The notes beneath the pieces were generated by a model. It was not told where the DNA came from. It made no database searches and was given only the letters and a program-made list of their open reading frames with translations. A stretch of DNA of 64,000 bases. It comes from Gammaproteobacteria bacterium (GTDB lineage Bacteria; Pseudomonadota; Gammaproteobacteria; Natronospirales; REEB76). Position numbers and translations under genes: made by a program. Shown here piece by piece: positions 4,136-27,080 of this stretch (the first letter of the stretch is position 1; every line of letters starts with the position of its first letter). The stretch covers positions 157,138-221,137 of the forward strand of contig JBAWFA010000004.1 of the NCBI GenBank assembly GCA_049591455.1. The letters run 5' to 3'.

Positions 4136-4154
4136 GACAGCGGTGTCCCGATGA

Positions 4155-7596: not shown

Positions 7597-7688
7597 GGGC
7601 GCATCTCACTATGGGTTACCCCAGATGCAGCAAGTTACATGCCAAGAAGGCTTAAGTGATGTAAACGTTTGATTGTAGAAAGATAAAG

Positions 7689-8279: not shown

Positions 8280-8306
8280 AGTCTGCAGGACCGCGGCTGA
8301 CGGCTC

Positions 8307-9152
8307 TTAACCGTGGGTTTGTCTCATATAGCTTCTGTCCAGCCTAACAGCCGATGGCGTACGCCCAAGCACGCGCTTAAAGGTCCGGTTCATGTGGCTT
8401 TGATCGCAGAAACCCGCTTCTGTCGCGATCCATGCAAGTAGTAAGTCAGTTTCACGCAACAATCGGGCCGCGCGCTCAACGCGGAACCGCGCTGCGGTAT
8501 TCAAAAGTCCCTCGCCTACAGCATTTCGGTAAGCTGTGCCCAGCCAGGATGGGTGCAATCCAGCGTCGCACGCAAGTTCGCAGATTCTTCGGGTCGGATC
8601 GTCCCTGAGATGCCGGGTTATATCGTTAAGCCAATCAGGACGTCTCGCCCGGGATTCGAAGGGTGCTATTTGTAAGAATCGCCGAAGTGCCGCGAGAAGT
8701 CGCTTCTCGGTTATGCCCTGGCTGCAAGCACTGGCGAGCGACTGAGCTTCGGCGCCATCGCGGCCACCTATCCATCGCGAGACCGGGCCATCAGGAAGCC
8801 GCAGGCACCGAAGCCAGGCTGGGTCGAATTCAATCTCGATCTGTTCGAACCCTTCGGGCCCTGCAGTGTTGCGGTGTGCCGCACCGGCGGCATAGAGGAC
8901 GGCCGAGGGTCCGGAAATAAACTCTGTTCCAATGTCGGTCTGATTCGAATAAGCGCCGATGACGAATAGGGAGAGCAGCGGCCAATCATGAGCGTGCTCC
9001 GGCACGCAGGCACGGCTTCTATCGATGGTTCTCCTGACATTGGCCCCACTGAACCTGTGTAGCATCTTGCTCCCCGCATTCTGATGCGAGATTCGTATCC
9101 AAGGGGCAACATACCACCGGCCGGCAGCTCTGGCAAAACGACCGTAATCCAA
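8307..9152 (-). CDS. AraC/XylS-family transcriptional regulator
   Basis: The C-terminal double HTH is typical of AraC (…WIATEAGFCDQSHMNRTFKRVLGRTPSAVR), with a cupin-like N-terminal half. The true start may be the internal Met (MLHRFSG..., about 9065). It is divergent from the 9236 gene. Confidence 0.8.
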   Translation of the reverse strand: MDYGRFARAAGRWYVAPWIRISHQNAGSKMLHRFSGANVRRTIDRSRACVPEHAHDWPLLSLFVIGAYSNQTDIGTEFISGPSAVLYAAGAAHRNTAGPEGFEQIEIEFDPAWLRCLRLPDGPVSRWIGGRDGAEAQSLASACSQGITEKRLLAALRRFLQIAPFESRARRPDWLNDITRHLRDDPTRRICELACDAGLHPSWLGTAYRNAVGEGLLNTAARFRVERAARLLRETDLLLAWIATEAGFCDQSHMNRTFKRVLGRTPSAVRLDRSYMRQTHG

Positions 9153-9235
9153 GGGAAAGCCGCACCTTGAAACCGTCCAATACGCCGCCCTAAGCCACGC
9201 GCTACGGTAAGCACAGATAATGCATCAGTGACCCA

Positions 9236-9715
9236 ATGTCCTCGGATTTCCATTCTTTAATCGTCACTATCGGAACCGAGAGCTTCTCGGCACGGCCTCG
9301 GTACGATTTGGCGCCTCGCTCGTGTGCATGCTTGATGGCATTGCTGCCGTATTTTGGAAAAGTGATTCATGCTCGCTGGAGCGGAGAAGCGCTGTGGTCG
9401 CCACTTTCCAGGGTTTTGCCCTTGGACTTTATCCTTCCTCGGGAAAATCCCAGCGGCCGCCCCGGTCCGGGTGAAATACTGCTCTTTGCCGGAGAGCAGA
9501 GCGAACCCGAGCTGCTGATCGTTTACGGGACCAGCCGCTTTGCGAGCGAGGCCGGGCCGCTTGAAGGTAATCCCGTCCTTACTATCGAAAACCAACTTGA
9601 TCGCGTCTCGCATCTCGGTCCCCAGGTTCTATGGAGTGGGGCGATGGAGCTTCGTATCCAGTCGCAACCCCAAATACAGCTGCCGCGCGCAGGCACCCCT
9701 ACACGGATGACGTGA
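9236..9715 (+). CDS. Cyclophilin-like-fold protein (DUF3830-like)
   Basis: 159-aa ORF containing ...IHARWSGEALW... and APRSCACL segments that I associate with the DUF3830 family. This is recalled from memory only. Confidence 0.4.
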   Translation: MSSDFHSLIVTIGTESFSARPRYDLAPRSCACLMALLPYFGKVIHARWSGEALWSPLSRVLPLDFILPRENPSGRPGPGEILLFAGEQSEPELLIVYGTSRFASEAGPLEGNPVLTIENQLDRVSHLGPQVLWSGAMELRIQSQPQIQLPRAGTPTRMT

Positions 9716-9789
9716 GATACGCCCCATAATCCCTTAACTCGGAGTTAATCAATATGTATACCTATGGAATTCAGTTTCAACCGGTGAAT

Positions 9790-11169
9790 ATGATGAAACA
9801 TCTGGTTCGATTTTGCGGCGTACTGCTGGTACTTCTTGCAGTACCATGCATTGCTATTGCCGACAAAGACGTGGATTGCCACATCGGCGGCTACCGGCTG
9901 GCCGATGGTGGCGTCGTGGCCATTACGCCCTCCGACGGTGGCACACTCCGCTGGCTGCGCTTCGACGGCGAAACGGGCGTGCTGCACAGGACAACCGGAG
10001 ATACATGGAGCAGCACCAAGGGTTGGACCCAACAGACGGACGGCATCACCGTCAGCCTCCCGGACTGCAAGACCGGGGAAATCAATTTCAACGGTATCCA
10101 CGGTCGGCGCCTCACGTTCGACACGGAGAACGTGCGCTTCAGGGGCCACGGCGTCACCCTCGCTGGTCGACTTGTGATGCCACCAGGAACGAACAAGGTG
10201 CCGGTGTTGATCTTCGTGCACGGCTCTGAACACGCCTCCGCAATAAGCTCCTACTCCACGTTTTCTTATGCCCTGCAACGTATGCTGCCCGCTGAAGGGA
10301 TCGGTATGTTCGTGTACGACAAGCGCGGGACCGGCGCATCCGGCGGCCAATACACCCAGGACTTCAGTCTGCTGGCAGACGACGTCGATGCCGCAGTGCG
10401 TGAAGCCCGCCATCTGGCGGGACCGCGGCTGGGACGTATCGGTTTCTTTGGGGGTAGCGAGGGTGGTTGGGTCGCGCCTATTGCGGCAAATCGTGTGCAC
10501 GTGAACTTTGTCATCGTAGGTTACGGGCTGGCGGTAAACGTCATTCAAGAGGATCAGGAAGAGGTAGAACTCCAAATGCGGCAAAAAGGCTATTCGCCCG
10601 AGATAATTGCCAAAGCACTCGAGGTGGCGCGCGCCGCCGAAACCGTAATGGAAAGCGATTTCAAGCATGGATTCCGGAAGTTAGATGCCATAAGGGCTAA
10701 GTATGGAAGCACACCCTGGTACAAAGAAGTATATGGTGATTACGCATGGATCGTACTGCAGCAGCATTCCGACGCGCAGCTCCGCGCCATGGCGCCAAAG
10801 TTCGACTGGCATACGCCCTTCCACTACGACCCGATGCCCACCCTACGTGCTGATAAGACCCCGCAGCTTTGGATCCTCGGTGGCGAGGACTACGAAGCGC
10901 CGAGTGCGGAGACGAGTCGCCGCATCAAGACGCTTATAGCAAGCGGGTTGCCATTTACGTTGGCCTACTATCCGCATGCGGATCACGGCATGACTTTATT
11001 TGAGACTCAAGCTGACGGCACGCGGGTTGATATCCGCTACGCGCCAGGTTACTTCGCCATGATCCGTGACTTTGCGCGTCTGGGTTGGCTTCCAAGTAAA
11101 TACGGCGACGCCGAGATATCGCGCTCTCACGTGGGTTCAGTTCCCGCCACAGGAACCTCATCCCATTAG
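9790..11169 (+). CDS. Secreted alpha/beta hydrolase (prolyl-oligopeptidase/dienelactone-hydrolase-like)
   Basis: Signal peptide MMKHLVRFCGVLLVLLAVPCIA, nucleophile elbow GGSEGGW, and a C-terminal ...YYPHADHGM region consistent with a catalytic His. The start was set to ATG 9790. Confidence 0.7.
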   Translation: MMKHLVRFCGVLLVLLAVPCIAIADKDVDCHIGGYRLADGGVVAITPSDGGTLRWLRFDGETGVLHRTTGDTWSSTKGWTQQTDGITVSLPDCKTGEINFNGIHGRRLTFDTENVRFRGHGVTLAGRLVMPPGTNKVPVLIFVHGSEHASAISSYSTFSYALQRMLPAEGIGMFVYDKRGTGASGGQYTQDFSLLADDVDAAVREARHLAGPRLGRIGFFGGSEGGWVAPIAANRVHVNFVIVGYGLAVNVIQEDQEEVELQMRQKGYSPEIIAKALEVARAAETVMESDFKHGFRKLDAIRAKYGSTPWYKEVYGDYAWIVLQQHSDAQLRAMAPKFDWHTPFHYDPMPTLRADKTPQLWILGGEDYEAPSAETSRRIKTLIASGLPFTLAYYPHADHGMTLFETQADGTRVDIRYAPGYFAMIRDFARLGWLPSKYGDAEISRSHVGSVPATGTSSH

Positions 11170-11327
11170 AGTAGCAATTATTTGTGGATAGCAAGAAGCG
11201 ATAGTTCATACCCATGGCAGGCCAGCCGTAAATGAAAAGATGGATTAACCTGGGGCAGAATTGAACATCGTCATCACTAGTCTTGGTTCATGGTCTCCAT
11301 GATGTCTCTGGATTAGAGGAGAAAGTT

Positions 11328-12332
11328 ATGAAACTGGTAAGACTGAAAGCACCGGCTGGGTTGCAAAATCTCCAATTGGTCGATGAAAATCATCCCGAAC
11401 CGGGGCCGGGTCAAATGCTGGTCAGGATCCGGGCCAGTTCATTGAATTTCCACGACGAATTGGTGGTGCAGGGAAAGATTCCGTGTGCCGACGGCCGTAT
11501 TCCCATGAACGACGGCGCCGGGGAGGTCATATCGGTTGGCGAGAACGTCGACGGGTTCAAGGCCGGAAACCACGTGGTCAGCACGTTTTGGCCCTATTGG
11601 TTGGAAGGCGATATGACACCGGCTACCCGGCGGGACATTCCTGGGGACAGTATTGATGGCTATGCCCGCGAATTTGTGTGCATGCCAGCACACGCTTTCA
11701 CCAAGGCCCCGGCAGGCTACACGCACGCCGAGGCGGCGACGCTGCCCACGGCCGGTGTGACCGCCTGGAGAGGTTTGGTCGAATGCGGCCATGTAAAACC
11801 CGGGGACTCTGTGTTGATCCTGGGCACCGGCGGCGTATCAATTTTTGCTCTGCAATTCGCCAAAGTTGCGGGCGCGCGCGTCATCGCTACTTCGTCCTCT
11901 GACGAGAAGCTGGAAAAGTTGAAGCGCTTGGGAGCCGACGACGTCATCAATTACAAGTCTGTACCGAAGTGGGGCCAGAAGGTAAAGGATCTGACGGATG
12001 GGCGTGGAGTTGATCAGGTCATTGAGGTCGGCGGACCCGGCACATTAATGCAGTCAATTGAAGCCTGCAGGATGGGCGGGCATATCGCCCTGATTGGAGT
12101 TTTGACCGGTTTTGCAGGAGAACTGTCGATCGGAGCACTGTTGTCTAGTCAGATCCGCACCAGTGCGATCATGGTTGGCAGCAGAGCCAATCAAGAGGAC
12201 ATGATCCGGGCCATAACCTCGAATCGTTTGAAGCCAGTTATTGACCGCCAGTTTCCACTCCAAGAAATTGTCGCGGCGTTCAAGTACTTCGAATCCCAAA
12301 AGCACTTTGGCAAAGTTTGCCTGCAACTTTAG
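11328..12332 (+). CDS. NAD(P)-dependent MDR-family (zinc-type/quinone) oxidoreductase
   Basis: GroES-like N-terminal domain and a Rossmann motif VLILGTGGVSIFALQFAK. The C-terminus ...KHFGKVCLQL is typical of the family. An RBS (gaggag) precedes ATG 11328. Confidence 0.85.
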   Translation: MKLVRLKAPAGLQNLQLVDENHPEPGPGQMLVRIRASSLNFHDELVVQGKIPCADGRIPMNDGAGEVISVGENVDGFKAGNHVVSTFWPYWLEGDMTPATRRDIPGDSIDGYAREFVCMPAHAFTKAPAGYTHAEAATLPTAGVTAWRGLVECGHVKPGDSVLILGTGGVSIFALQFAKVAGARVIATSSSDEKLEKLKRLGADDVINYKSVPKWGQKVKDLTDGRGVDQVIEVGGPGTLMQSIEACRMGGHIALIGVLTGFAGELSIGALLSSQIRTSAIMVGSRANQEDMIRAITSNRLKPVIDRQFPLQEIVAAFKYFESQKHFGKVCLQL

Positions 12333-12425
12333 GCGTCAACCACCGATCTGAGGCCCAACATACTTGTTACTCACCGTGTGTAGATATTTGGAGTTAAATT
12401 TATCTCGTGATCAGCAAGCATTGAA

Positions 12426-13277
12426 TTGCAGACAGCTACGAAACAGGAGAATACGGCTATGACAAAACACATCATGACAACGAGCAAGGAAAAAGATAAA
12501 GAAGACGAGAAAGGGCAACTCCGCATGAATACACCTCCAATAGTGTCGCCTGAGGCGTGGGAGGCCGCACGTCAGCAGCTGCTTGTGAAGGAAAAGGCAT
12601 TGACCCGCTCCCGTGATGCGCTCGCCGCCGAACGTCGACGGATGCCGTGGATGATGGTGGAAAAGAACTACGAGTTCGACAGCCCTAAAGGTAAGATAAA
12701 CCTGCTCGACTTGTTCGAAAGCCGCCGGCAGTTGATCGTCTACCGCGCCTTTTTCGAGCCCGGGGTGTTCGGCTGGCCTGAGCACGCCTGCCGCGGCTGC
12801 TCCCTGGGCGCCGATCAGGTCGCCCACCTCGCGCATCTGAACGCGCGCGACACCACGCTTGCCTACGCCTCACGCGCGCCGCAGGCGGACATCGCCCGTT
12901 TGAAAGCACGCATGGGTTGGGAGATGCCTTGGTACACCATTACCGACAGCTTCGACACTGACTTCGGCGTTAACGGTTGGCACGGCCACAACGTGTTCTT
13001 CCGCGACGGCGAGCGAGTTTTCCGCACGTACTTCATCAACAACCGTGCCGACGAGGCGATGGGAACCACCTGGAGTTACCTCGATATCACGCCACTCGGG
13101 CGTCAGGAGACCTGGGAAGATTCGCCTGAGGGTTATCCCCAGTCCCCGCCGTACAAGTGGTGGAACTGGCACGACAACTACGACGCCGAGACCGCGCCGG
13201 ATCCGAAGTGGGTCGACATCATCACCGACCCCCAGGAAGCCGCCGCCCGGAGGCGCGACGAAGATGAGAAGGAATGA
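12426..13277 (+). CDS. DUF899 thioredoxin-like protein, copy 1
   Basis: Characteristic N-terminal segment PPIVSPEAWEAARQQLLVKEKALTRSRDALAAERRRMPW...LLDLFESRRQLIVY. The start is ambiguous (Met at 12426, 12459 or further in). Confidence 0.75.
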   Translation: MQTATKQENTAMTKHIMTTSKEKDKEDEKGQLRMNTPPIVSPEAWEAARQQLLVKEKALTRSRDALAAERRRMPWMMVEKNYEFDSPKGKINLLDLFESRRQLIVYRAFFEPGVFGWPEHACRGCSLGADQVAHLAHLNARDTTLAYASRAPQADIARLKARMGWEMPWYTITDSFDTDFGVNGWHGHNVFFRDGERVFRTYFINNRADEAMGTTWSYLDITPLGRQETWEDSPEGYPQSPPYKWWNWHDNYDAETAPDPKWVDIITDPQEAAARRRDEDEKE

Positions 13278-13333
13278 CCCTGCACATGACTGCGGCTTCT
13301 TCAAGCAGAGTTATTGCCGCAAAGGAAAAAACC

Positions 13334-14080
13334 ATGAAAGACGCCGTCAGCAATGAACTTGGAGCTCCGAAATTAGTCGATCGGAGCATTTTTCAGGCCG
13401 AATTGGACGTGCTGCGCATTCGGGAGAAGGCTCATACAAAGGAAGGCGACGCCATTGCAGCTGCCCGCCGACGACTTCCGATGGTCGAGGTGGACGGCAC
13501 CACACCACTGATTAGCGCACATGGGGCAGTGACACTGCTGGATGCGTTTGAGCGCCGCCGGATACTGATCGCCTACTACTTTATGTGGCACACCGGCCAC
13601 CCTGCGCCGGAACAGTGCGAGGGCTGCACTTGGTTAACATCGCAGGTTCGCGAGCTATCCTATATCCATTCCCGCGACGCCACCTACGCCGTGTTGTGCC
13701 AAGGCCCGTATGAAGAGAGCGCCCGGTACCGCGACTTCATGGGCTGGGAGATGCCTTGGTACTCGGCCAGGGACTCGCTCGATACTCTCCTGGATGGAGG
13801 CCGTGCGGGCATGTTCCACCTCGTTTGCTACCTGCGACAAGGATCCAAAGTCTATGAGACGTACTGGACGACGGGCCGCGGCGGCGAGGCGATGGACATA
13901 AGCTACGGTCTGCTCGACTTGACCGTCTACGGGCGGCAGGAGCCGTGGGAGGATTCGCCGGCTGGCTGGCCACAACATTTCAAAGGCAAGCAGACCTTCC
14001 GCATCGACGGACGCCCTACCCCTCAGTGGTCTCGCCTGAAGGCCGGATATTCGGACGATCTGGGCACTGGCAGCCGCTGA
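13334..14080 (+). CDS. DUF899 thioredoxin-like protein, copy 2
   Basis: Paralogous pattern FQAELDVLRIREKAHTKEGDAIAAARRRLPM...LLDAFERRRILIAYYFMW. ATG 13334 (MKDAVSN...) was chosen. Confidence 0.75.
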   Translation: MKDAVSNELGAPKLVDRSIFQAELDVLRIREKAHTKEGDAIAAARRRLPMVEVDGTTPLISAHGAVTLLDAFERRRILIAYYFMWHTGHPAPEQCEGCTWLTSQVRELSYIHSRDATYAVLCQGPYEESARYRDFMGWEMPWYSARDSLDTLLDGGRAGMFHLVCYLRQGSKVYETYWTTGRGGEAMDISYGLLDLTVYGRQEPWEDSPAGWPQHFKGKQTFRIDGRPTPQWSRLKAGYSDDLGTGSR

Positions 14081-14767: not shown

Positions 14768-15772
14768 TTAATCCAGATTAGCAGCGAATTCGACGTCTTC
14801 CTCGGTTAAGTCAGACAAATTATCTAACGCTTTCAATTGGCTAACATCGTCCAGAGCCATCGAAAAGTTTAGCCTGGGGTTGAAGCGCATGTAGTTTTGT
14901 TTGAGCAGTAACTGTGCCTGATCGTGAACCAGAGTTGATTGACTCTGCATCGTTATCTCAAAAAACGGCGGAGATGAGAATTTCCGAGTCCATCCCTTAC
15001 CCCCTGTATTGATCAGTGTCCTATAGTCATACGACACTGCATGAGGTATCCCAGTTCCCACGGAAAGCATTCTGAGTCGTGTACCGCTCGCCGTATTTAA
15101 GCTGTGCTCTGGATTCCTACCACGCTTACTTTTGCGTTCAAACTGCAGTGCTTCCACCAATGCAATCATAGAAGGGTTATTTGCGCAGAGCCCGCCATCA
15201 ACAATGTAAGAAGAATGTTGTGATGAATGGCTAGCAAAGTATGTCGGCGCCGCTGAAGTACACAGAGCCACGTCCACCAACCGCTCCTGGAGACGGCCTG
15301 AATTCCGTGCTAAGTAGTCAGTTTTGAATAATCTGGACTGTGCATTTTGCAACCCAACACCAATAATACAGGCGTCTGTATTTAAATCAGCGAGACACCG
15401 GCGCCCAAAACACTCAATAAGAAAGTCTCGAAGTATCCGGTTATCATACTTCGGGCGCCACCAGGGTAGGAGATGCCTTGCTTTTGGGCCAAATATTTTC
15501 GGCAGATAAGTTTCGTGTAATTCACGTATCTTCCCTGCAGAAATCCCCACAGCCAATCCAAGAGCGATTATTCCGCCGGTCGAAGTACCGACAATAAAGT
15601 CAAACCGCTCACCGAGAGACACAGTGCGTCCGGTACTCCTATTCAGATGGGTCTCAAGATTCTCCAAATATCGAATCGATAGATAACCTCTCGACCCGCC
15701 ACCATCTAAACTCAACACACAAAAATTATCTGACACTTCTTGTATCTGCATCAGCCCTACCAACCATTCCAC
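14768..15772 (-). CDS. Patatin-like phospholipase, CBASS effector (CapV-like)
   Basis: Oxyanion motif DGGGSRG, nucleophile GTSTGG (GxSxG) and catalytic Asp motif DGGLCANNP. It overlaps the upstream CD-NTase gene by 16 nt, or starts at MQIQE... (15751), 5 nt after its stop. Confidence 0.85.
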   Translation of the reverse strand: MEWLVGLMQIQEVSDNFCVLSLDGGGSRGYLSIRYLENLETHLNRSTGRTVSLGERFDFIVGTSTGGIIALGLAVGISAGKIRELHETYLPKIFGPKARHLLPWWRPKYDNRILRDFLIECFGRRCLADLNTDACIIGVGLQNAQSRLFKTDYLARNSGRLQERLVDVALCTSAAPTYFASHSSQHSSYIVDGGLCANNPSMIALVEALQFERKSKRGRNPEHSLNTASGTRLRMLSVGTGIPHAVSYDYRTLINTGGKGWTRKFSSPPFFEITMQSQSTLVHDQAQLLLKQNYMRFNPRLNFSMALDDVSQLKALDNLSDLTEEDVEFAANLD

Positions 15773-16677
15773 AGCTCAATGAGCTCAGAAGTAAACGAGC
15801 GAGCTTGTGATACTGTCAACTGATATCGATGATCTCCAAATAATGCCCAACGGCCGTGTTGGAATGTGAAATTCTGTGCCGCAGGTCCTTGCAGCGAATG
15901 ATGAAGGAAATTGATAGCGTGTATTACAGTAGACTCGTAGCTAGCTCCGAATTGGCCATCAGGCACATTAAATAGCAAGCATTCAACAAAGTATGATGGT
16001 ATTTTTGTCGTGAAGAAAGTTACGTTTATGTCAGAAGCGCGATTGCGCATGTTCTTGAAGATCCTCACAGTTGGCTTATACCATCCATTTGTTCTTAACG
16101 GGGAATTTTTATTTGCGCCATTGTCGCGGTGCGCCTTTGGGTATGCCTCATATTCAAGCTCATCACTTTGTCCCCTAAATTTGACGCCTTCAGCCTCAAG
16201 CTTCAAGCCATTGTAGTGGCAATACTTAATGCAAGGGATTACGTCCGCTTTCAAACGCCCTGGCTGTGCGCCAATCTTAATGGACTTGTTCCCACGCGTT
16301 ATGGATCCACGACCAAAATGCGCAACTAGTGCATGCAATACTTCGCTATTGAAACGCTGCACCGGGTAAGTGCCTGCAATTAGACCAAGCTGCTGCTTAT
16401 CAATTGGTGTGAGATTTGAATCGAATTGCGAGGTAAACTCACATATCACATCAATGTCACTGTCGGCGCGAATATTTGTAGCATTTGCATAGGAACCCTG
16501 CAGGTACACCTCATAACTCATGCTCTGGGGCCAAGTATGTCTGGCAAGCGCTGTTTCGACCGATCGATACGTATCGGCTGACATAGTTGTCGCGCCTTGG
16601 TTTGCCCATGTAGTAAGCTGGTCTTCAGGTATTGCCATTGATACCGCTTCCTCACTCTGGTTCGCGCCCCGGTTCAT
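15757..16677 (-). CDS. cGAS/DncV-like nucleotidyltransferase (CD-NTase, SMODS family)
   Basis: Pol-beta NTase core LQGSYANATNIRADSDIDV (GS...DxD) and a third acidic residue in KADVIPC. The downstream blocks YPKAHRDNGANKN...GWYKPTVRIFKNMRN and SYFVECLLFNVP are typical of SMODS/CD-NTases. Confidence 0.8.
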   Translation of the reverse strand: MNRGANQSEEAVSMAIPEDQLTTWANQGATTMSADTYRSVETALARHTWPQSMSYEVYLQGSYANATNIRADSDIDVICEFTSQFDSNLTPIDKQQLGLIAGTYPVQRFNSEVLHALVAHFGRGSITRGNKSIKIGAQPGRLKADVIPCIKYCHYNGLKLEAEGVKFRGQSDELEYEAYPKAHRDNGANKNSPLRTNGWYKPTVRIFKNMRNRASDINVTFFTTKIPSYFVECLLFNVPDGQFGASYESTVIHAINFLHHSLQGPAAQNFTFQHGRWALFGDHRYQLTVSQARSFTSELIELWNGW

Positions 16678-16929: not shown

Positions 16930-17766
16930 ATGTTTAAGACCATAGGTAAGTCTGTCTGGGCGTTCGACCTTGAATGGGTACCCGACCCACTCGCGGCCAA
17001 GCGCTTAGGATTGGTAGATGAGGGCGCTTCCGATGCGGAAGCGATAAAGGCACTCTGGATTCGGACTGGAGTCACCGAATCCGACCCTCAACCTTTCGTG
17101 AAAACCGTTCTGTCCAGAATAGTCTCAATATCCGCAGTTAAACGTGAAACTTTAGACAATGGGACCGTGACCTTGTCACTCACCTCAATGCCACGGCCTG
17201 GAGATGAGATGGATGAGAAGTCTTTGTTATCCAGCTTTTTCACGGCCATAGGACGCACAAAGCCCCAACTTGTCGGATTCAATAGCGGCAGTTCCGACCT
17301 CAAGATCCTAACTCAGCGGGGTATAGCCCTGGGAATATCAGCACCCGGATTTGGGCAACGCCCCAATAAACCATGGGAAGGGTATGACTACTGGGCCGCG
17401 CACGGTAGCGAAGGTCATATTGATCTTGCAGACATCGTCGGTGGATGGGGTAAAGCAATGCCGTCGCTCCATGAGATCGCTGTCGTTTCCGGTATCCCCG
17501 GTAAGCTCGGTATCGGTGGGGATAAGGTTGCGCCAATGTATTTTGCGGGCGATATCGCCGGCATAGTCGCCTATAACGAATGCGATGCTATCACTACATA
17601 TTTACTCTGGTTACAGGTTGCTAATTTTGGCGGTTTTTTCAATGCAGGTCAGTTTCTTGAAGAGCAGCGTCGAGTTGCAACATTGCTACTCTCGCAGTCG
17701 CGAGAGAAACCGCAATTAAACAATTACATTAGAGAGTGGCAAAGACTAGGCGGCTATCCTTCATAA
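16930..17766 (+). CDS. DEDDy 3'-5' exonuclease related to the PolB exonuclease domain
   Basis: ExoI WAFDLEW, ExoII VGFNSGSSDLKIL and ExoIII AYNECDAITTY. It is divergent from the CBASS operon and convergent with the 17768 gene, with stop codons 1 nt apart. Confidence 0.75.
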   Translation: MFKTIGKSVWAFDLEWVPDPLAAKRLGLVDEGASDAEAIKALWIRTGVTESDPQPFVKTVLSRIVSISAVKRETLDNGTVTLSLTSMPRPGDEMDEKSLLSSFFTAIGRTKPQLVGFNSGSSDLKILTQRGIALGISAPGFGQRPNKPWEGYDYWAAHGSEGHIDLADIVGGWGKAMPSLHEIAVVSGIPGKLGIGGDKVAPMYFAGDIAGIVAYNECDAITTYLLWLQVANFGGFFNAGQFLEEQRRVATLLLSQSREKPQLNNYIREWQRLGGYPS

Positions 17767-17767
17767 T

Positions 17768-18313
17768 TTATTTACGGAGTAGTATCTTTGCGACATAAGA
17801 TGCAACATCATTTTCATAGCCAGATCGTGACAAGCGTAGTAGCTTTTCCTTTATCCAAGCATCATCATATAAACGCCAACCATGTCGCTCACAAATCTTT
17901 CCGATTGATTCCCGGTCCGTTTCGCTTGCAATATTGCCTGCTGCAAGACAAAGAGTCACTGTTGGCCTAGGAGCGCATAATCCATAAGATACAAGTTGCT
18001 TAACAAGCCTGGCCAAAATCACCTTTCTGAGTGTTGAGTCGTTAAATAATTTGTATTGCTGGCCTGCATCTGCATTTGTTCCATCCAGTCCGTGAGCGCG
18101 CACCCCGGTAGAATCAAGGTACGATTTACACTCAACTACAAGCAATTCATTCGACTTGGCTTTATATGCGAGAACATCTACTTCCCACCGTGGTGAGGTA
18201 GGCCGCTTGATTTTCTTTTTGTCCTCTGGAGTAAGTTCAACCTTGAGATTCCTTCGCACCCAATAGCCTTCCTTTTCTAGCAGAAATCCGACAAGCGATT
18301 CAAACGCATCCAT
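17768..18313 (-). CDS. Small PD-(D/E)xK (Mrr-cat/restriction-endonuclease-like) nuclease
   Basis: N-terminal FESLVGFLLEKEGYWV helix followed by WEVDVLAY ... LLVVECKS. This gives the E...D...ExK arrangement of the restriction-endonuclease fold. Confidence 0.6.
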   Translation of the reverse strand: MDAFESLVGFLLEKEGYWVRRNLKVELTPEDKKKIKRPTSPRWEVDVLAYKAKSNELLVVECKSYLDSTGVRAHGLDGTNADAGQQYKLFNDSTLRKVILARLVKQLVSYGLCAPRPTVTLCLAAGNIASETDRESIGKICERHGWRLYDDAWIKEKLLRLSRSGYENDVASYVAKILLRK

Positions 18314-18326
18314 TTATTTATATCTT

Positions 18327-18911
18327 TCAGCCAAATTCGGCGACTTTGTCATTCTGTGCTATCGCTAGAAAGTTACTTACTTTTATAAACTTCCCAAATG
18401 CCCATAGGGCTTTATCTACATCTCGGCCATCGATACCAGCAAATGTCGCATGGAACGGCATGTAACTAGTAATGTAAGAATTAATTGTTCTTGGATCATA
18501 ATTCGATATTTCCATTGCTACACCAGTCTGTATAAATGTCATTGCACGGTGGACATGTTGATCATAAATTGGAAAACGCAAAGACTGCCAACAATGCAGC
18601 CAGAAAATTCTCCATATAGCACCTCCGTCTGTGAATATATCTCTTAACAGGACATTAACATATTCGGTGAGCTCAAGATGCGCTAATTCTCGCCGCCGCC
18701 GAACAAAATTGTGCAGCACAGAATCTCTCTTTCGTGCAGATAACCGCGTTCCATTTTTCCACCGATAAAGATCCAGTATCCGTCGCTGAGTTAGTTCACG
18801 ACCGATATTCTCTTCGTACAGATTTTCTTCAGGGTAGCGGTAGCGGGGACTCCAGAATTCCACGAACTGGTGGATATTAGCTGTCAGTGGCTGGTAAATG
18901 ATCATTGGCAA
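18327..18911 (-). CDS. Hypothetical protein (194 aa, Trp/Arg-rich, apparently all-helical)
   Basis: Clean ORF ending 13 nt upstream of the nuclease gene start and 59 nt downstream of terL. No family recognised (…LYRWKNGTRLSARKRD…FWLHCWQSLRFPIYDQHVHRAM…DKALWAFGKF…). Confidence 0.5.
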   Translation of the reverse strand: MPMIIYQPLTANIHQFVEFWSPRYRYPEENLYEENIGRELTQRRILDLYRWKNGTRLSARKRDSVLHNFVRRRRELAHLELTEYVNVLLRDIFTDGGAIWRIFWLHCWQSLRFPIYDQHVHRAMTFIQTGVAMEISNYDPRTINSYITSYMPFHATFAGIDGRDVDKALWAFGKFIKVSNFLAIAQNDKVAEFG

Positions 18912-18970
18912 TAATGTAAACCCCTCTGCTTACAAATAGGAGATCCTAGGCTGCGTCATCATTAGTTACC

Positions 18971-20455
18971 CTATCTGACTTTGGCCTTCCTTTCCTCAGC
19001 GAGCATGCGGTAATACCCGATAATACCGGGTTCTCGACCAGCTTGTTTGAACCAATCGAGTGCCTGTGCCGTTGAATCAACTTGGTCATCATAGCGGCCA
19101 TTGGGGAATGCAAATAATTCGTGCAAGAAGTCCGTAAGCCAGGGAGCATCTTTCGGGAGATGAACGAATCCATTCTCCATCAAGTCCGTCTGAGCGTGTA
19201 GACGCATCACCTTGTCCTCTTGAGACTGATAACGTTTAACCCCAGCTATCCCTTCTTGGGTGAGCTCTTGAATAAGCTGTGTTCCCGAGGCCTTATCTTC
19301 AATCACTATGACTGAGGCATGATGGAGCTGGGCCTGTTCCCGCACCGCCCGCTTGAGCTCCGGATAGTTCATGCGCTTGCGAAAAGCAGACAACATATAG
19401 AGGTGGTTACCAGTAATACCCCAGGTCGTACATACACTGAAGTCGCTCAGTTCACTCTGTTTATTGGCCGTATCCCAACTCTGAATAATACGATCGAACT
19501 TCGGTAAGAGCTGAGAAGAGTCGTAACGTGGAAACCACACCTCCTTGACCATGGCCCCGCCTCGCGGGACTGGTTGCTGCAAATATTGGGCCGAGAAGTC
19601 AGCCTCGCCCATGGTACGTCGAATGCGCCCCAGCGTTTCAAGGGACTCGCGCCCAGGATGAAGTGCACTGCCCGCCTTCCGTCGATATTTCTGCGCTCCG
19701 TAGGGCGTGGTAATCACGTACTGCTCTTCTTTGTCGGCAATTGCAGATAGTTGTACAACCTCCCATTGCTCCTGGTCAAGCACATGGCCCACGAGATCAT
19801 CTTCATGCAGACGTTGCATCACGATGATGATACAACCGGTGTTCTTGTCGTTAAGCCGACTGTATAACGTGTTCTCATACCACTGATTAACCCGCCGGCG
19901 CTCGCTTTCCGACAGTGCCTGCTCGGGCTTTAAAGGGTCATCGATTACGATTACGTTTGCCCCGCGCCCTGTCAACACGCCCCCTACTGAACTGGCCATA
20001 CGAAGTCCTCCTTGAGTCGTCGAGAAATCCGCTACCGCTTGGCGATCAGGGGAAAGACGCGTGGTAAACAGCCGTTGATACCAGTCACATAACATCACGG
20101 TGCGGCAATCTGATGCATGTTTAACAGCCAGATCCTGGCCATATGACACACACATGAGTTGAACAGTTGGATCGTGCCCTAGCCAGAATGCCGGAAAGGC
20201 CACTGAGGCAGAGATCGACTTCAGTGAACGTGGCGGCACTAAGAGAATTAGGCGACGAATTTCACCTTGGCGACAAGCCTCGAGTTTGCTCGCGATCAAT
20301 TCCAGGTGCCAATTGGGATAAAACAGCGCGGCCGGTGTGACCTGATAATAGACACGCTCGATAAATGCAAAGAGATCAATCCGTAATAAGGCATCAAATT
20401 CATTCATCGTCAGTTTCATCGTCAGCCCCCTTGAGTATCTCTTGCATGCGCTCAA
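18971..20455 (-). CDS. terL: Phage terminase large subunit
   Basis: ATPase half with RRLILLVPPRSLKSI and Walker-B-like NVIVIDDPLKPE. The nuclease half has IIQSWDTANK and RYDDQVDSTAQAL acidic motifs. The likely true start is MNEFDALL (about 20407), overlapping the stop of the upstream gene (ATGAATGA). Confidence 0.8.
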   Translation of the reverse strand: MSACKRYSRGLTMKLTMNEFDALLRIDLFAFIERVYYQVTPAALFYPNWHLELIASKLEACRQGEIRRLILLVPPRSLKSISASVAFPAFWLGHDPTVQLMCVSYGQDLAVKHASDCRTVMLCDWYQRLFTTRLSPDRQAVADFSTTQGGLRMASSVGGVLTGRGANVIVIDDPLKPEQALSESERRRVNQWYENTLYSRLNDKNTGCIIIVMQRLHEDDLVGHVLDQEQWEVVQLSAIADKEEQYVITTPYGAQKYRRKAGSALHPGRESLETLGRIRRTMGEADFSAQYLQQPVPRGGAMVKEVWFPRYDSSQLLPKFDRIIQSWDTANKQSELSDFSVCTTWGITGNHLYMLSAFRKRMNYPELKRAVREQAQLHHASVIVIEDKASGTQLIQELTQEGIAGVKRYQSQEDKVMRLHAQTDLMENGFVHLPKDAPWLTDFLHELFAFPNGRYDDQVDSTAQALDWFKQAGREPGIIGYYRMLAEERKAKVR

Positions 20456-20816
20456 TCAAGTGTTGAGCGACCCGTGTATCGTCTGCACTTGACGTCTTTT
20501 CGTGTTCTACGCCCTTAAAACTCGGATCAACGAGTGGCATTAACCGAATTGTCTGATCACACGCACGCAGATCACCTGCAGCTGCTTTATTCACCATTTG
20601 CTTCGCGATGGCATCCGATTTCGTAATTTCAGAGCGCTTGCCACCTTCATTGACGATCACCGGTTCCAATAGGGCACGATTCAAAGAGGTTTTAAAATTG
20701 GGTGTGCCTTTGGGACGACCCGCTGGGTTACCTGATTTACCCTTGACAAAGCGACCGCTTTTGGGTGGCTTGCCATAACCAACTTTGTCATCATCGTCTT
20801 TGAATGGATTACTCAT
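20400..20816 (-). CDS. DUF5681-like protein (small-terminase position)
   Basis: Basic N-terminus with a KGKSGNPAGRPKGTPN motif. It sits immediately upstream of terL and overlaps the MTase gene by 4 nt. Confidence 0.6.
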   Translation of the reverse strand: MSNPFKDDDDKVGYGKPPKSGRFVKGKSGNPAGRPKGTPNFKTSLNRALLEPVIVNEGGKRSEITKSDAIAKQMVNKAAAGDLRACDQTIRLMPLVDPSFKGVEHEKTSSADDTRVAQHLIERMQEILKGADDETDDE

Positions 20817-22186
20817 GACTGCGCCCTCTCTAGTTCAAGCGTGCTGAAGGATTTATTCGTTTGGGCGTGACGAGCTATTTGCCCTGTGTAGGCCTGCCAG
20901 CGCCGAACACTGGTGTCTACATAAGTTGGATCCAGATCGATACCAAAGCAGATACGCCCGGTACGCTCTGCTGCCAAAACTGCCGTGCCACTTCCTAGGA
21001 AAGCGTCTAAAATAATATCGCCGCGGCTCGAGCAGTCCATGATCGCATCAGCAATCAGGGCGACTGGTTTAACGGTGGGATGCAGCGCCAACAGATTCCC
21101 TTCGCCGGTTGACCGAGAAAATGAATTCACACCGGGGTAATTCCAAATATTTGTCCGATAACGCCCAAACTCACCAAGTTGGATATGATTTTGATGAGGT
21201 GCGTGGCCGTTTTTAAATACAAAACAAAATTCGTGCTGGCTTCTGAACAAACTACCCATACCAGCGTTGTCTTTGACCCACACGCAGACATTTTTGAGTT
21301 CGGTATATGCCTGCCGACCCGCTGCGAGTAGCTCGCCCTGATGTCTCCAATCCATGAAAATGAAGTGGATTGAACCGTCGACACTATTATTAGTGAGCTG
21401 TAAACAAGTCTGGGTAAGAAAGAAGGTGAACTGAATTTCTGTCATCTCGCCCGATGCCATGACGAAATCCTTATGCTGGACTCGCCCAAGACCACTGGCA
21501 TGACCTTGGATCCGGACGTTATACGGTGGATCGGTAATCACCATACGCGCCTTCTGATCCGGCATTAGGTTTTGATAGGACGCTGCATCCAGTGCGCTAC
21601 CGCAGTAGATTCGATGTGGCCCGAGCATCCAAAGATCGCCGGGTATACTGACAGCTGAACCTGATGCGGGAATATCATCGGCAGGATCGGTCTCACCTTC
21701 AGTCATCGGCGCTAGACCCTCGATCAAAAGATCGATCTCTCCCATTTCAAACCCTGTGTCCTCAAGATGAAAATTCAAATCAACTGATGAAAGCTCTTGG
21801 AACTGTTGCGCGAGCAGCCGTTCATCCCAGGCGGCGTTTTCAGTCAATTTGTTATCAGCAATCACAAATGCCCGAACTTGCTGCTCCGTCAGGTGTTCGA
21901 GTCGAATGGTCGGGACTTCGGTCAGGCCGAGAAGCTTGCACGCAGAGATCCGCCCGTGCCCAGCAATGACCCGGCTCTTAGCATCTATAATGACAGGAAC
22001 ATTAAAACCGAAGACTTCGATGCTACGAGCAATTTGCTTGAGCTGTTTTTTGCTGTGTAGACGCGGATTCAGAGGATCGAGTGTGAGCTGGTCAATGGAA
22101 TGATAAGCGATTTCCAGATTCCGATGACGATTGGGCGCCCGGTTTCCGGCGATGAGTGCATTTCGGGTGTTACGCGCACTGCGCAT
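20813..22186 (-). CDS. ParB-like nuclease domain fused to a beta-class N6A/N4C DNA methyltransferase
   Basis: N-terminal ParB/Srx-like domain (LDPLNPRLHS...AGHGRISA). MTase motif IV ITDPPYN precedes motif I DAFLGSGTAVLAAE, which is the beta-class order. Confidence 0.85.
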   Translation of the reverse strand: MRSARNTRNALIAGNRAPNRHRNLEIAYHSIDQLTLDPLNPRLHSKKQLKQIARSIEVFGFNVPVIIDAKSRVIAGHGRISACKLLGLTEVPTIRLEHLTEQQVRAFVIADNKLTENAAWDERLLAQQFQELSSVDLNFHLEDTGFEMGEIDLLIEGLAPMTEGETDPADDIPASGSAVSIPGDLWMLGPHRIYCGSALDAASYQNLMPDQKARMVITDPPYNVRIQGHASGLGRVQHKDFVMASGEMTEIQFTFFLTQTCLQLTNNSVDGSIHFIFMDWRHQGELLAAGRQAYTELKNVCVWVKDNAGMGSLFRSQHEFCFVFKNGHAPHQNHIQLGEFGRYRTNIWNYPGVNSFSRSTGEGNLLALHPTVKPVALIADAIMDCSSRGDIILDAFLGSGTAVLAAERTGRICFGIDLDPTYVDTSVRRWQAYTGQIARHAQTNKSFSTLELERAQS

Positions 22187-22479: not shown

Positions 22480-22941
22480 ATGCCTGAAACTACCCCACCA
22501 CTGGATGGCCTGCCTAGCTTAAATCGGGGGGAATTACTGGCTTTGTGGACGAAGCTTTTTGGCCAGCCGTTAGCATTCCGTGCCTCCAAAGACTTTCTGG
22601 TCTGCGCCCTCGCCTATCGCTTGCAGGAACAATCCCATGGTGGTCTGAGCAAACGGTCCCAAGCGCACCTTCGTAGGCTCGCCAGAGAGTTAGAAGATGG
22701 AGTTGCTCTCACCCCGACCAAGACACTTGCACTTAAACCCGGTACGCGTCTGGTCAGGGAATGGCGCAGTGTGACCCACGAGGTGCGCGTACTCAACACC
22801 GGATTTAAATACCGCAACCGGTCATACCAAAGTCTCTCGGAAATCGCGCGCGAGATCACCGGCACGCGCTGGTCGGGACCTCGATTCTTTGGTCTTAATG
22901 GCAGTCGCGTGCAATCGCGTGGGGTATCCCATGTCTGCTGA
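22480..22941 (+). CDS. DUF2924-like protein (recombinase-associated)
   Basis: The pattern LLALWTKLFGQPLAFRASKDFLVCALAYRLQEQSHGGLS is typical of DUF2924. It overlaps the recombinase start by 11 nt. Confidence 0.6.
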   Translation: MPETTPPLDGLPSLNRGELLALWTKLFGQPLAFRASKDFLVCALAYRLQEQSHGGLSKRSQAHLRRLARELEDGVALTPTKTLALKPGTRLVREWRSVTHEVRVLNTGFKYRNRSYQSLSEIAREITGTRWSGPRFFGLNGSRVQSRGVSHVC

Positions 22942-24670
22942 GTGCACCCGCCCTCTGCAATGTGCGATCTACACCCGCAAATCGTCCGAGGAAGGGCTGG
23001 AACAATCCTTCAATTCTCTGGATGCCCAGCGCGAGGCGTGCGCGGCTTATATTGAAAGTCAGCGGCATGAAGGTTGGAAGCTAGTTGATACGCACTACGA
23101 TGACGGCGGTTACTCAGGCGGCAACATGGAACGCCCAGCACTTGGTCAGCTGTTAGCAGATATTGATCGCGGCCGGATCAATGTAGTGGTAGTCTACAAA
23201 GTAGATCGGTTAACCCGCGCACTCAATGACTTCGCTAGGATTGTCCAGACCTTTGATGCCCACGAGGTTTCGTTTGTCTCGATCACGCAGGCGTTCAATA
23301 CGACGAGTTCCATGGGGCGCTTGACACTCAACGTGCTGCTCTCGTTCGCCCAGTTCGAGCGAGAGGTCACCGGGGAACGGATCCGGGACAAGATTGCCGC
23401 CTCAAAACGAAAGGGAATGTGGATGGGGGGCCGGGTGCCACTTGGCTATGACCTCGTTGGCCGCAAGCTCGTCATCAACGCCACGGAGGCCGAGCAGGTC
23501 CGTCATTTATTCGGCCGCTATGCGGTGCTAAAAAGCGTCGACCAACTTCGAACGGAGCTTGCGAAGCAAGGCCGAACTAGCAAGGTGAGATTAAGCAAGA
23601 CAGGCAAAACCTCGGGAGGTGCAACCTACTCCCGGGGCGCCTTGTACCACATCCTCGGCAACCGTCTTTACCTGGGTGAAACAATCCACCAGGGCCACAC
23701 CTACCCCGGCGAGCATGCGGCAATCGTGTCTCAAACACTCTGGGATCAGGTGCAGATATTGATGAAAGAAAACCAACAAGCGAGACGCACTGGGGCGAAA
23801 GCCAAGGAGCCCAGTCTATTGGCTGGCCTTATATATGATGATGAGGGCCACCGGCTCACTCCCTCCCATACGATCAAGCATGGCAAGCGCTACCGGTACT
23901 ATGTCTCTCAAGCGCGGATCCAGCATGTGGAGGGCGCTCAGAAAAGTGTCGGTCGAATTCCGGCGCGGGATATTGAAACGTTGGTCAGCGAGCGGCTACG
24001 CCGATTATTGGAGTCCAGCGGGGATCTGCGAAAAGCGCTCGGACACCCTGAGGACGACACGGCAACCCAAACTAATTTGATTGCCGAGGCCAAGGACCAA
24101 GCGGCTCGTTGGTCTGACCACGAACCTGCCGAGATCCGGGCATGGTTACTCCAGGTCATCACCAAAATAAGTGTCAGCACCGATCACATTGACATCCAGG
24201 TCAGCCGGATCGGATTGCGTGCCGCGCTGCTCGGCAAGCAAAAAATGGCCCCGCGGGTAAATGAGCGACACACTGAAACGACTCATCACGGCGACGTATT
24301 TAGCCTGACAGTCGAAGCTCAACTTAAGCGCTGTAGCGGTGAAGTACGCCTGATCGTACCCACGGGATCGGCGGAATATCTATCCGCCCATCCCAATGCA
24401 GCCCTCATGAAAGCGATCGCACGTGCACATGACTGGTACGAAATGCTCCTGACCGGCGAGGCCAAATCCCTGCGCGGACTTGCCCGTCAAATCGGAACCC
24501 ATGAGCGTTATGTGAGTCGCATTGTCCGCTGTGTATTTCTCGCACCCGACGTCGTCGCGGTGATCCTCGCCGGTCGCCAACCGCCAGACCTGACACTCGA
24601 CAAGCTCTTGGAAAACTTGCCCACGGACTGGGCTGAGCAACGCCGAGTTCTAAACTGCGCATTCCGCTGA
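22931..24670 (+). CDS. Large serine recombinase (integrase)
   Basis: Resolvase-type catalytic domain CAIYTRKSSEEGLEQSFNSLDAQREA ... VVVYKVDRLTR. It is followed by a recombinase domain and a long C-terminal extension. The start was set to ATG 22931. Confidence 0.9.
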   Translation: MSAECTRPLQCAIYTRKSSEEGLEQSFNSLDAQREACAAYIESQRHEGWKLVDTHYDDGGYSGGNMERPALGQLLADIDRGRINVVVVYKVDRLTRALNDFARIVQTFDAHEVSFVSITQAFNTTSSMGRLTLNVLLSFAQFEREVTGERIRDKIAASKRKGMWMGGRVPLGYDLVGRKLVINATEAEQVRHLFGRYAVLKSVDQLRTELAKQGRTSKVRLSKTGKTSGGATYSRGALYHILGNRLYLGETIHQGHTYPGEHAAIVSQTLWDQVQILMKENQQARRTGAKAKEPSLLAGLIYDDEGHRLTPSHTIKHGKRYRYYVSQARIQHVEGAQKSVGRIPARDIETLVSERLRRLLESSGDLRKALGHPEDDTATQTNLIAEAKDQAARWSDHEPAEIRAWLLQVITKISVSTDHIDIQVSRIGLRAALLGKQKMAPRVNERHTETTHHGDVFSLTVEAQLKRCSGEVRLIVPTGSAEYLSAHPNAALMKAIARAHDWYEMLLTGEAKSLRGLARQIGTHERYVSRIVRCVFLAPDVVAVILAGRQPPDLTLDKLLENLPTDWAEQRRVLNCAFR

Positions 24671-25101: not shown

Positions 25102-26598
25102 ATGAAGAAACTAATTGACCTTTCCAATGAAGAAGCACGAGCCCATTTCTTTAAGGGCAGTAGCTACTTCAATGGGGATATGCCGTACTACATAAGCTTC
25201 GAGCCAATATTAACGCACGTTGCGGCCGTATTGAACGGCGAAAATTACGCCAAATTCAAATCAAGTAATCCATGCGATTTCTCGAACGTCAACTACAACT
25301 TCATCGCAAACAAAGATGGGAAGTTCGCCTGGCGCCCTTACGAGCTAATGCATCCGGCACTTTATGTTTCATTGGTAAATGCAATATGTGAGGAAGCGAA
25401 CTGGGGCATTATCAAGGCTCGTGTAGCTGAGTTCCAAGGAGGTGTCGTCGACTGCTGCAGTGCTCCGGTAATGTCGGTTGACCATCAAACGGATGTTGCA
25501 ACTCAGATAAAGAGTTGGTGGCAAAAGGTTGAACAAAGGTCACTAACTTATTCATTGGAATTCAGTCATCTTCTCCATACAGATGTAACTGACTGCTACG
25601 GTTCGCTGTACACGCATAGCATTGCCTGGGCAGTACATGGGTTTAACGAAGCGAAGAAGAACAAGGGGAAACACTCTCTTCTCGGAAATAAAATCGACCT
25701 CCACATTCGAGACAGCCGCTACGGCCAAAGCAACGGTATTTCACAAGGCTCAGTCCTTATGGATTTTGTTGCTGAGATCGTTCTTGGATATGTGGATGAA
25801 CAGATTAATTTGGAAATCGAAAACCGCTCTGGCATCCGCATACTCCGATACAGGGACGACTATCGAATTTTTACCAATAGCGACGAGCAAGCGGAGAATG
25901 TCCTCAAGATAGTGAGTGACAAGCTTCGATCGGTAGGTATGAAACTCAGCGTATCAAAAACAATATCTTGTAGAAATGTTGTAGAAGGCTCAATCAAATC
26001 TGACAAACTTGCCGGGATTGAGCTGCAAGATCTCGGGATTACAAATGCCAAGACCATTCAAAAGCAATTGATGCGACTACATGCTTTCGGCCAACGGCAT
26101 CCGAACAGCGGGGCACTTCGAAGACTGGTGAGTGAGTTTCACTCCAGAGTTTCCACTCAGACTGACGCGCCAGATGATCTTGAAGTACAGGTGGCCATCG
26201 CAACTGATATCGCATACGTGTCGCCGGCGACATTCCCAGCAATAGCCGGCATTTTGAGTCACCTAATTTCATTAGCAGCACACCATGAGAAAGTGCCCCT
26301 TTGGACAAAGGTGCGAGATAAGATGCAACATGTCCCATATAACGGCTATCTTGAAATCTGGCTACAACGCGTTACGCAACCAAAGGCCGTTGGTATCAAA
26401 TTCGAAAGTGAAGAGCCCATATGCAAGATTGTGAACGGAGAGTCGCCTCAATTATGGGAGTGCGGGTGGATTGCAAATGAAGCCTTGGAAAAGGCCATTG
26501 ATGTCAAAAAGATACTCGTGGCAGATGCGGCCGAAGCTAAAGAAGTGATACAACCGAAAGAAGTCGAGTTGTTCAAGCAGAACGCATGGGCGTATTAG
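25102..26598 (+). CDS. Stand-alone Abi/UG-type (defence-associated) reverse transcriptase
   Basis: RT finger/palm motifs LHTDVTDCYGSLYTHSI, NGISQGSVLMDFVAEIVLGYVD, catalytic ILRYRDDYRIF (YxDD) and GMKLSVSKT. A C-terminal region of about 190 aa has no recognisable domain. The gene is low in GC. Confidence 0.85.
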   Translation: MKKLIDLSNEEARAHFFKGSSYFNGDMPYYISFEPILTHVAAVLNGENYAKFKSSNPCDFSNVNYNFIANKDGKFAWRPYELMHPALYVSLVNAICEEANWGIIKARVAEFQGGVVDCCSAPVMSVDHQTDVATQIKSWWQKVEQRSLTYSLEFSHLLHTDVTDCYGSLYTHSIAWAVHGFNEAKKNKGKHSLLGNKIDLHIRDSRYGQSNGISQGSVLMDFVAEIVLGYVDEQINLEIENRSGIRILRYRDDYRIFTNSDEQAENVLKIVSDKLRSVGMKLSVSKTISCRNVVEGSIKSDKLAGIELQDLGITNAKTIQKQLMRLHAFGQRHPNSGALRRLVSEFHSRVSTQTDAPDDLEVQVAIATDIAYVSPATFPAIAGILSHLISLAAHHEKVPLWTKVRDKMQHVPYNGYLEIWLQRVTQPKAVGIKFESEEPICKIVNGESPQLWECGWIANEALEKAIDVKKILVADAAEAKEVIQPKEVELFKQNAWAY

Positions 26599-26989: not shown

Positions 26990-27080
26990 TGGCGGAGAGG
27001 GCGGGATTCGAACCCGCGATACGCTTTAGGCGTATACACGCTTTCCAGGCGTGCTCCTTAGACCGCTCGGACACCTCTCC
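26990..27080 (-). tRNA. tRNA-Ser (anticodon GGA), class II with long variable arm, CCA encoded
   Basis: The reverse complement reads GGAGAGGTGTCCGAGCGGTCTAAGGAGCACGCCTGGAAAGCGTG...GCGGGTTCGAATCCCGCCCTCTCCGCCA. It has a 7-bp acceptor stem (GGAGAGG/CCTCTCC), anticodon loop CTGGAAA and a T-loop GGTTCGAATCC. Confidence 0.9.

Follow-up and report, generated by a model that had tools for sequence, protein, structure and literature searches.

The stretch of DNA analysed here (the window) comprises 64,000 nucleotides from a Gammaproteobacteria bacterium (GenBank assembly GCA_049591455.1, contig JBAWFA010000004.1, positions 157,138 to 221,137 of the forward strand), in which two adjacent open reading frames (ORFs), here called A194 and B181, follow the gene for a large terminase subunit (TerL) on a genomic island. 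A194 (18327-18911, reverse strand, start codon TTG) encodes a protein of 194 amino acids and B181 (17768-18313, reverse strand) one of 181 amino acids. The analyses made it reasonably probable that A194 and B181, which lie side by side after TerL, are single-gene cargo modules independent of each other and probably directed against phages. Both belong to known kinds of protein, respectively helix-hairpin-helix (HhH) glycosylase-like and PD-(D/E)xK, and both represent large, unannotated families found in a known type of context.

The initial annotation of the locus, made from the sequence, had reported that the two ORFs share the strand of the ParB-methyltransferase, DUF5681 and TerL genes, that they are preceded by gaps of 59 and 13 nt, respectively, and that they have the lowest guanine-plus-cytosine (GC) content of the island, and the ORF list and base composition agreed on every point. 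The GC content was 0.429 for A194 and 0.441 for B181, against 0.516 for TerL and 0.56 for the whole window, while the GC at third codon positions (GC3) was 0.39 and 0.37, against 0.55 in TerL and 0.50 in the PolB-exo2 gene on the other side of B181. The spacer between TerL and A194 (18912-18970, reverse strand) contains a Shine-Dalgarno-like GAGGGG at 18926-18921, 9 nt upstream of the TTG start, and no terminator was predicted in it. The spacer between A194 and B181 (18314-18326, reverse strand) showed neither a terminator in the scan nor a strong ribosome-binding site, and on this basis we infer that the two genes are likely co-transcribed.

Searches in a 90%-identity cluster library recovered 678 clusters of A194 homologues and 1287 clusters of B181 homologues, none of them functionally named, and a full hidden Markov model (HMM) search of 1.84 billion representatives extended the A194 family to 875 clusters at 50% identity. 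Judging from this sequence conservation, A194 and B181 are real genes and not chance ORFs, because both have many homologous clusters and many invariant columns. The relatives came from Acidobacteriota, Planctomycetota, Desulfobacterota, Proteobacteria, Campylobacterota, Chlorobi and Verrucomicrobia metagenome-assembled genomes (MAGs).

B181, a predicted minimal PD-(D/E)xK nuclease

Alignment of the B181 family revealed that E5 (codon 18301-18299), D46 (18178-18176), E61 (18133-18131) and K63 (18127-18125, all on the reverse strand) are invariant, and the resulting E...D...ExK motif aligned with the nuclease motif of Card1. The AlphaFold2 (AF2) model, with a predicted local distance difference test (pLDDT) score of 89.6, consists of one alpha/beta domain with canonical strand order, whose elements are a helix (residues 2-14), three strands (18-26, 42-51 and 56-64), a second helix (81-110) and a final strand (118-125). 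This order corresponds to the alpha-beta-beta-beta-alpha-beta core of PD-(D/E)xK nucleases, with the glutamate on helix 1, the aspartate where strand 2 ends and the ExK residues on strand 3. The best Foldseek matches in the PDB were the nuclease domain of Upx, itself an anti-phage protein (9wuf, 3.8e-5), AF1548 (1y88, 3.9e-4) and MspJI (7.7e-4), with further matches to XisH, MunI, VC1899, the Avs3 nuclease and Can2; the fold matches among viral structures were only of a generic 'restriction endonuclease' type. Sequence scans gave weak matches to Upx and to Pfam Mrr_cat (PF04471), the latter with 17.4 bits (E 0.005), which is below the gathering threshold of 21 bits.

No separate sensor or DNA-recognition domain was present in B181, the winged-helix, SRA and nucleoside triphosphatase (NTPase) types all being lacking. 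The nuclease layout and the missing recognition domain had both been noted in the initial annotation, and both were borne out, the former by the invariant residues, which fall on the PD-(D/E)xK positions of the model, and the latter by its single domain. On sequence and model grounds, B181 is thus a predicted single-domain PD-(D/E)xK nuclease of the Mrr/Upx/MspJI effector type. It shares the core and the E...D...ExK motif with the Mrr and MspJI Type IV nucleases, the C-terminal nuclease of Upx and AF1548, and differs from Mrr, MspJI and Upx in consisting of the catalytic domain alone. The protein would act as a stand-alone, metal-dependent DNA endonuclease that mobile elements carry by itself. 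The B181 family, which is even larger than that of A194 and likewise unannotated, comprises bare nuclease domains carried on mobile DNA, and it raises the question of how a bare nuclease avoids killing its host.

The neighbours of B181 were varied, and included RepB, integrases, Mrr_cat, a TrwC relaxase, an IS200 transposase, a caspase-domain protein and RmuC. The commonest was a ParB-type N6/N4 methylase, and a Type II restriction-modification pairing of the two was considered; this methylase was an immediate neighbour in only 6 of the 149 neighbour proteins scanned (from 47 B181 loci), and the loci of these six belong to about two lineages of viral contigs. The candidate role of B181 as cognate restriction endonuclease of the ParB-methylase was consequently rejected, most B181 loci being without a methylase. 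In one viral lineage (L081, positions 8566-9564, and also L093, L125 and L127), B181 lies between the ParB-methylase and a convergent gene for a 332-amino-acid protein with the Cys pairs CPVCC and CEKC, a D...EVK motif and no Pfam match; this protein may be the true restriction endonuclease partner of the methylase.

A194, a candidate HhH-GPD DNA glycosylase

Scans of Pfam, NCBIfam, PADLOC and PHROG gave no family match for A194, in line with the initial annotation, which could assign the protein to no named family, and PDB sequence-profile searches with two alignments returned spurious matches only (IFI16, Mesd and the beta subunit of ribonucleotide reductase). The AF2 model was all-helical (pLDDT 86, predicted template modelling score 0.83), and its Foldseek comparison with 350,000 PDB chains revealed that the best 16 matches were all HhH-GPD DNA glycosylases, including MjaOgg (3knt), the MutY proteins of E. 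coli and Geobacillus, mouse MUTYH and the Ogg protein Tm1821; MagIII, hOGG1 and AGOG followed lower in the list.

The predicted HhH of A194 spans residues 85-108 (helix 85-92, hairpin FTDGG at 93-97, helix 98-108), with G96 and G97 of the hairpin invariant among close relatives, and is followed by the Pro-rich loop QSLRFPIY at 109-116 and by D117, which starts the next helix. This is the layout of the HhH-GPD motif, in which an HhH leads through a Gly/Pro-rich loop to an invariant Asp some 20 residues past the hairpin Gly. Without any gap, G97, D117, H119 and R122 of A194 correspond, respectively, to G118, D138 (catalytic), H140 and R143 of E. coli Nth, so that the two proteins share a register of hairpin Gly, 20 residues and D-x-H-x-x-R. 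The best stretch in three hhalign runs against Nth was always YDQHVHRAM versus VDTHIFRVCN, which contains the catalytic D138. Over 93 diverse family members the invariant positions were W20, Y32, F103, D117 (codon 18563-18561), D166 (18416-18414, both on the reverse strand) and G173, with W170 located four residues past D166. No lysine was found at the position of the lyase Lys of Nth (K120, in the second HhH helix), where A194 has I99, and therefore the enzyme, if active, would be monofunctional.

On the basis of this model and motif, A194 quite probably has the fold of an Ogg-like HhH-GPD DNA glycosylase. The scores themselves weigh against the assignment: the structural matches were weak (best E value 0.27, probability 0.77, and template modelling scores of 0.33-0.46 for the best 16, with 0.37-0.46 for the better ones), the glycosylase HMMs of Pfam and NCBIfam gave no match at E <= 0.1, and the hhalign comparisons of A194, alone or as a profile, with Nth had a probability below 1% and were not significant. 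The homologue search for the Nth template profile yielded only relatives of 86-99% identity, with no gain in the template.

Compared with canonical HhH-GPD glycosylases (EndoIII/Nth, MutY, Ogg and MagIII; PF00730, PF21790), A194 probably shares the all-helical two-lobed fold and shares, with Nth in particular, the HhH, the Pro-rich loop, the Asp at the G118-to-D138 spacing and the D-x-H-x-x-R start of the following helix. It differs from them in the lack of a significant HMM or profile match, of an Fe-S cluster and of the lyase Lys, and in appearing horizontally mobile, whereas the canonical enzymes belong to the core genome. It resembles the stand-alone HhH glycosylases, which have been seen as anti-phage effectors only since 2024-2025 and are hard to find by sequence. 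The Dag glycosylases are stand-alone members of the HhH superfamily that restrict 7-deazaguanine phages; they are missed by sequence searches, fall into a group with MjaOgg and AGOG, and sit in AT-rich mobile DNA (Getz et al., doi 10.1101/2025.10.29.685425). Dag1 requires D184 and, four residues further on, the base-stacking W188, and its K118 is essential (doi 10.1101/2025.10.29.685425). Another stand-alone defence glycosylase is Brig1 (PMC11078745). Like Dag1-Dag17 and Brig1, A194 is a single small gene in mobile DNA of atypical GC content which sequence searches with canonical glycosylases do not detect, a likeness drawn from the descriptions of these proteins. The spacing of D166 and W170 equals that of D184 and W188 in Dag1, again as given in the text of that paper. 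Unlike Dag1, A194 has no counterpart of the essential K118, hence its predicted monofunctional character, and its relatives occur mainly in MAGs of Acidobacteriota, Planctomycetota and Desulfobacterota, not in Vibrio integrons.

If the assignment is right, A194 would use its HhH to bind DNA and flip a non-canonical base, such as a modified base of phage DNA, into an aromatic pocket formed by W20, Y32, W51, F103, Y146, Y150, F153 and W170; the helix that carries D166, which precedes W170 by four residues, would line this base pocket. D117, at the position of the catalytic Asp of endonuclease III, would then cut the glycosidic bond and produce abasic sites, which might stall or break the invading DNA. 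The Dag and Brig1 glycosylases act in this manner. The initial annotation had suggested that the locus could be modification-dependent through its ParB-methyltransferase; modified DNA is indeed a plausible target, because A194 looks like a base-excision enzyme and not because of the neighbouring methylase. A protein that is blank in every annotation library thereby gains a testable identity which, if true, would extend the stand-alone defence glycosylases to soil and sediment phyla.

That A194 and B181 are decayed or inert prophage remnants without present function is extremely improbable. Such an origin would suit an island without structural genes and two proteins outside every annotated family, but both ORFs are of full length, each keeps every residue that is invariant in its family, and confident models were obtained for both.

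Rare fusions of the A194 domain were also observed: P0292 and P0333 carry, one, a weak N-terminal domain resembling uracil-DNA glycosylase (UDG; E 1e-4) and, the other, a C-terminal DUF6884. In a Terriglobia MAG (L016, positions 9989-11026), a single ORF combines the first two thirds of A194 with an AbiTii domain, and could represent either a fusion or a gene that has been disrupted.

Pairing, mobility and neighbours of the two families

The initial annotation had proposed a bipartite system composed of a sensor subunit and a catalytic subunit, which should recur as neighbours in other genomes. Neighbourhoods were fetched for 46 A194 genome loci (flanks of up to 10 kb in both directions), for 80 metagenome and 11 viral loci of B181, and for 11 extra loci of the nearest relatives of both proteins. 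Partners were searched by tblastn in the fetched flanks (8-10 kb asked, many contigs being shorter), and a locus was considered informative when it had room for a downstream partner of A194 or an upstream partner of B181. No B181 relative was found in the 49 A194 loci (43 informative), and no A194 relative in the 99 B181 loci (65 informative); the nearest relatives, with 64-71% identity, were likewise unpaired. The two-gene reading fails because the genes are not conserved as neighbours: A194 and B181 are not a conserved two-gene system, and a false one is thus removed from the list of candidates.

Clustering of neighbour sequences did not reveal any recurrent partner of A194, and in a Pfam tally of 146 of its neighbours each family occurred at most three times. 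Among 17 long proteins or ORFs of the A194 family that were scanned, none contained a nuclease domain, and the Pfam matches at E <= 0.01 were limited to three of the 17, namely to the weak UDG-like domain, DUF6884 and AbiTii. Two candidate partners were rejected, a small ORF of about 100 amino acids downstream of A194 and an ORF of about 260 amino acids upstream of it, since in neither case were the members of the set homologous.

A rival explanation is that the two genes nevertheless work together at this locus, as a split glycosylase-nuclease module in which A194 would recognise or excise a modified phage base and B181 would cut the marked or abasic DNA. The 13-nt spacing, the shared strand, the lack of a terminator and the matching low GC3, unlike that of TerL and PolB-exo2, are as expected of joint acquisition or local co-function, and the pairing test covers adjacency within about 10 kb. 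The design is also known in defence: END nucleases (PMC12191111) are single polypeptides that fuse a nuclease, of the phospholipase D (PLD) type in the type member END-PaCF1, to an inactive EndoIII/Ogg domain. In addition, other nucleases occur within two genes of a few A194 relatives (ERCC4 in L001 and Endonuclease_1 in two loci). No nuclease family recurs beside A194, however, its long family members carry none, and not one of the informative loci is paired. Each family persists well alone, and therefore neither needs the other. Moreover, A194 retains its putative catalytic Asp, whereas the sensor domains of END nucleases are inactivated. A functional pair at this locus is accordingly unlikely.

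The locus resembles END in having an Ogg/EndoIII-like module beside a nuclease in a defence island, with hypermodified phage DNA as the proposed target, and departs from it in that there are two genes with the Asp retained, no conserved pairing and no nuclease fusion. A bolder version, in which A194 would found an undescribed, dispersed family of Ogg-like glycosylases directed against base-modified phages and would be newly coupled here to B181 cutting abasic or marked DNA, as an active two-polypeptide counterpart of END, appears very doubtful.

The reading of two independent cargo genes agrees with their base composition elsewhere. Relative to their flanks, the GC content was lower by a mean of 7.3 points in the A194 genes (negative in 38 of 43) and of 4.0 points in the B181 genes (negative in 40 of 43), and both families look horizontally mobile because of this consistently lower GC content. 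Several relatives lie among defence-type genes. At L150 (positions 618-6172), an A194 relative of 66% identity heads a row comprising a CAP12-PCTIR TIR-like gene, CoiA_N, an N6_N4 methylase with a BglII endonuclease and a nucleotidyltransferase of the MNT type; at L158, a B181 relative is located beside Schlafen-AlbA_2 and Mrr_cat, and L048 contains a REase-ARP fragment. These defence contexts are individual loci, and the many housekeeping genes among the neighbours of A194 speak against the reading as anti-phage cargo.

Those housekeeping neighbours would better suit a function outside defence, in which B181 would be a structure-specific nuclease that serves the island or phages, for instance as a resolvase or as an aid in packaging, and A194 an accessory repair glycosylase. 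Both families are unusually conserved, with 50-70% identity across phyla, and B181 occurs in viral contigs, in two lineages of which it directly follows the ParB-methylase, near genes for a terminase small subunit and DUF3489. On the other hand, most B181 loci are without phage packaging genes, and B181 was not found in the nine closest relatives of the island backbone, which carry the same methylase, though their tails after TerL are short. The scan of viral contigs detected no A194, both genes consistently look foreign by their GC content, and the surrounding cargo consists of defence genes here and in L066, L150 and L158. We consider a role outside defence quite unlikely.

The host island and its cargo region

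The backbone of the island, which lies next to a tRNA-Ser, consists of five genes: a large serine recombinase, DUF2924, the ParB-methyltransferase, DUF5681 and TerL. On the reverse strand, the ParB-methyltransferase (20813-22186) contains N6_N4_Mtase and ParB_N domains and is followed by DUF5681 (20400-20816, domain match 3e-21) and by TerL (18971-20455; PHROG 38, 1e-104). The genes for DUF2924 (22480-22941) and the serine recombinase (22889-24670) are taken from the ORF list, lie on the forward strand and are divergent from the methylase operon; their names are those given in the initial annotation.

This backbone is conserved elsewhere. Nine viral contigs were recovered with the TerL of the window (L138-L146, IMG/VR), and the order ParB-methylase, DUF5681, TerL was kept in each of them, with 38-64% identity for these three proteins, and also in L066, while the serine recombinase and DUF2924 were present in eight of the nine, in the same order as in the window (38-70% identity for the backbone overall). 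Every one of the nine contigs stops 87-1179 nt past TerL and their tails have no mutual homology, which fits a cargo junction at which metagenome assemblies break. In the marine contig L066 (positions 1368-13953), the ParB-methyltransferase, DUF5681 and TerL are followed by an HTH-Dcm methylase, Vsr and a restriction endonuclease of the MvaI/BcnI type, then by a B181 relative, two unknown genes, and an AAA_21/AAA_15 ATPase with a UvrD-like helicase (Gabija-like), and thus it represents a second case of defence cargo after TerL.

According to the initial annotation, A194 and B181 replace the portal and capsid genes that should follow a terminase. That was an interpretation which the relatives of the element do not bear out, since portal and capsid genes are missing from the TerL-related contigs and from L066 too. 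The supposed portal slot is instead the region in which this capsid-less island, with its five-gene backbone, carries variable cargo, and not a recent replacement of a portal gene, because the tails of the relatives are unrelated and L066 carries defence cargo at the same place. A194 and B181 illustrate this cargo slot for a family of capsid-less, terminase-carrying islands. The island resembles phage satellites, i.e. phage-inducible chromosomal islands (PICIs), capsid-forming PICIs (cf-PICIs) and P4-like hotspots, in being tRNA-adjacent and integrative and in combining a conserved mobility and packaging core with changing cargo, and its cargo region starts directly after TerL. As far as we found, its backbone is not among the described satellite families, and no helper phage is known.

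The remaining cargo agrees with the defence and mobile-element setting that the initial annotation had recognised. Genes for a patatin (14768-15772) and a CD-NTase (15757-16677), both on the reverse strand and identified from the ORF list and Pfam scan, constitute a cyclic-oligonucleotide-based anti-phage signalling system (CBASS) that is co-resident cargo on the island, and an Abi-P2 reverse transcriptase (25102-26598, domain match 1e-188) lies between the recombinase and the tRNA-Ser(GGA) (26990-27080, reverse strand), which adjoins the island. The PolB-exo2 gene, for a 3'-5' exonuclease (16930-17766, forward strand; ORF list and Pfam scan), is convergent with B181, with stop codons 1 nt apart and no terminator between them, and none of the B181 loci fetched contained a PolB-exo2 relative. 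A 20-nt direct repeat, identical at 19 of 20 positions, occurs at the 3' end of B181 (17789-17808) and inside the Abi-P2 gene (26312-26331), and is probably due to chance.

A recurring GTGAGTGGG motif after TerL in the relatives was considered as an attachment site and rejected, as it is coding sequence of a C-terminal TerL tail. The TerL of the window is without this tail and ends in ...EERKAKVR, while the TerL relatives of L139, L141 and L145 carry a C-terminal tail of about 30 amino acids with the shared motif ...NRGA.LRE(W/L)DR....

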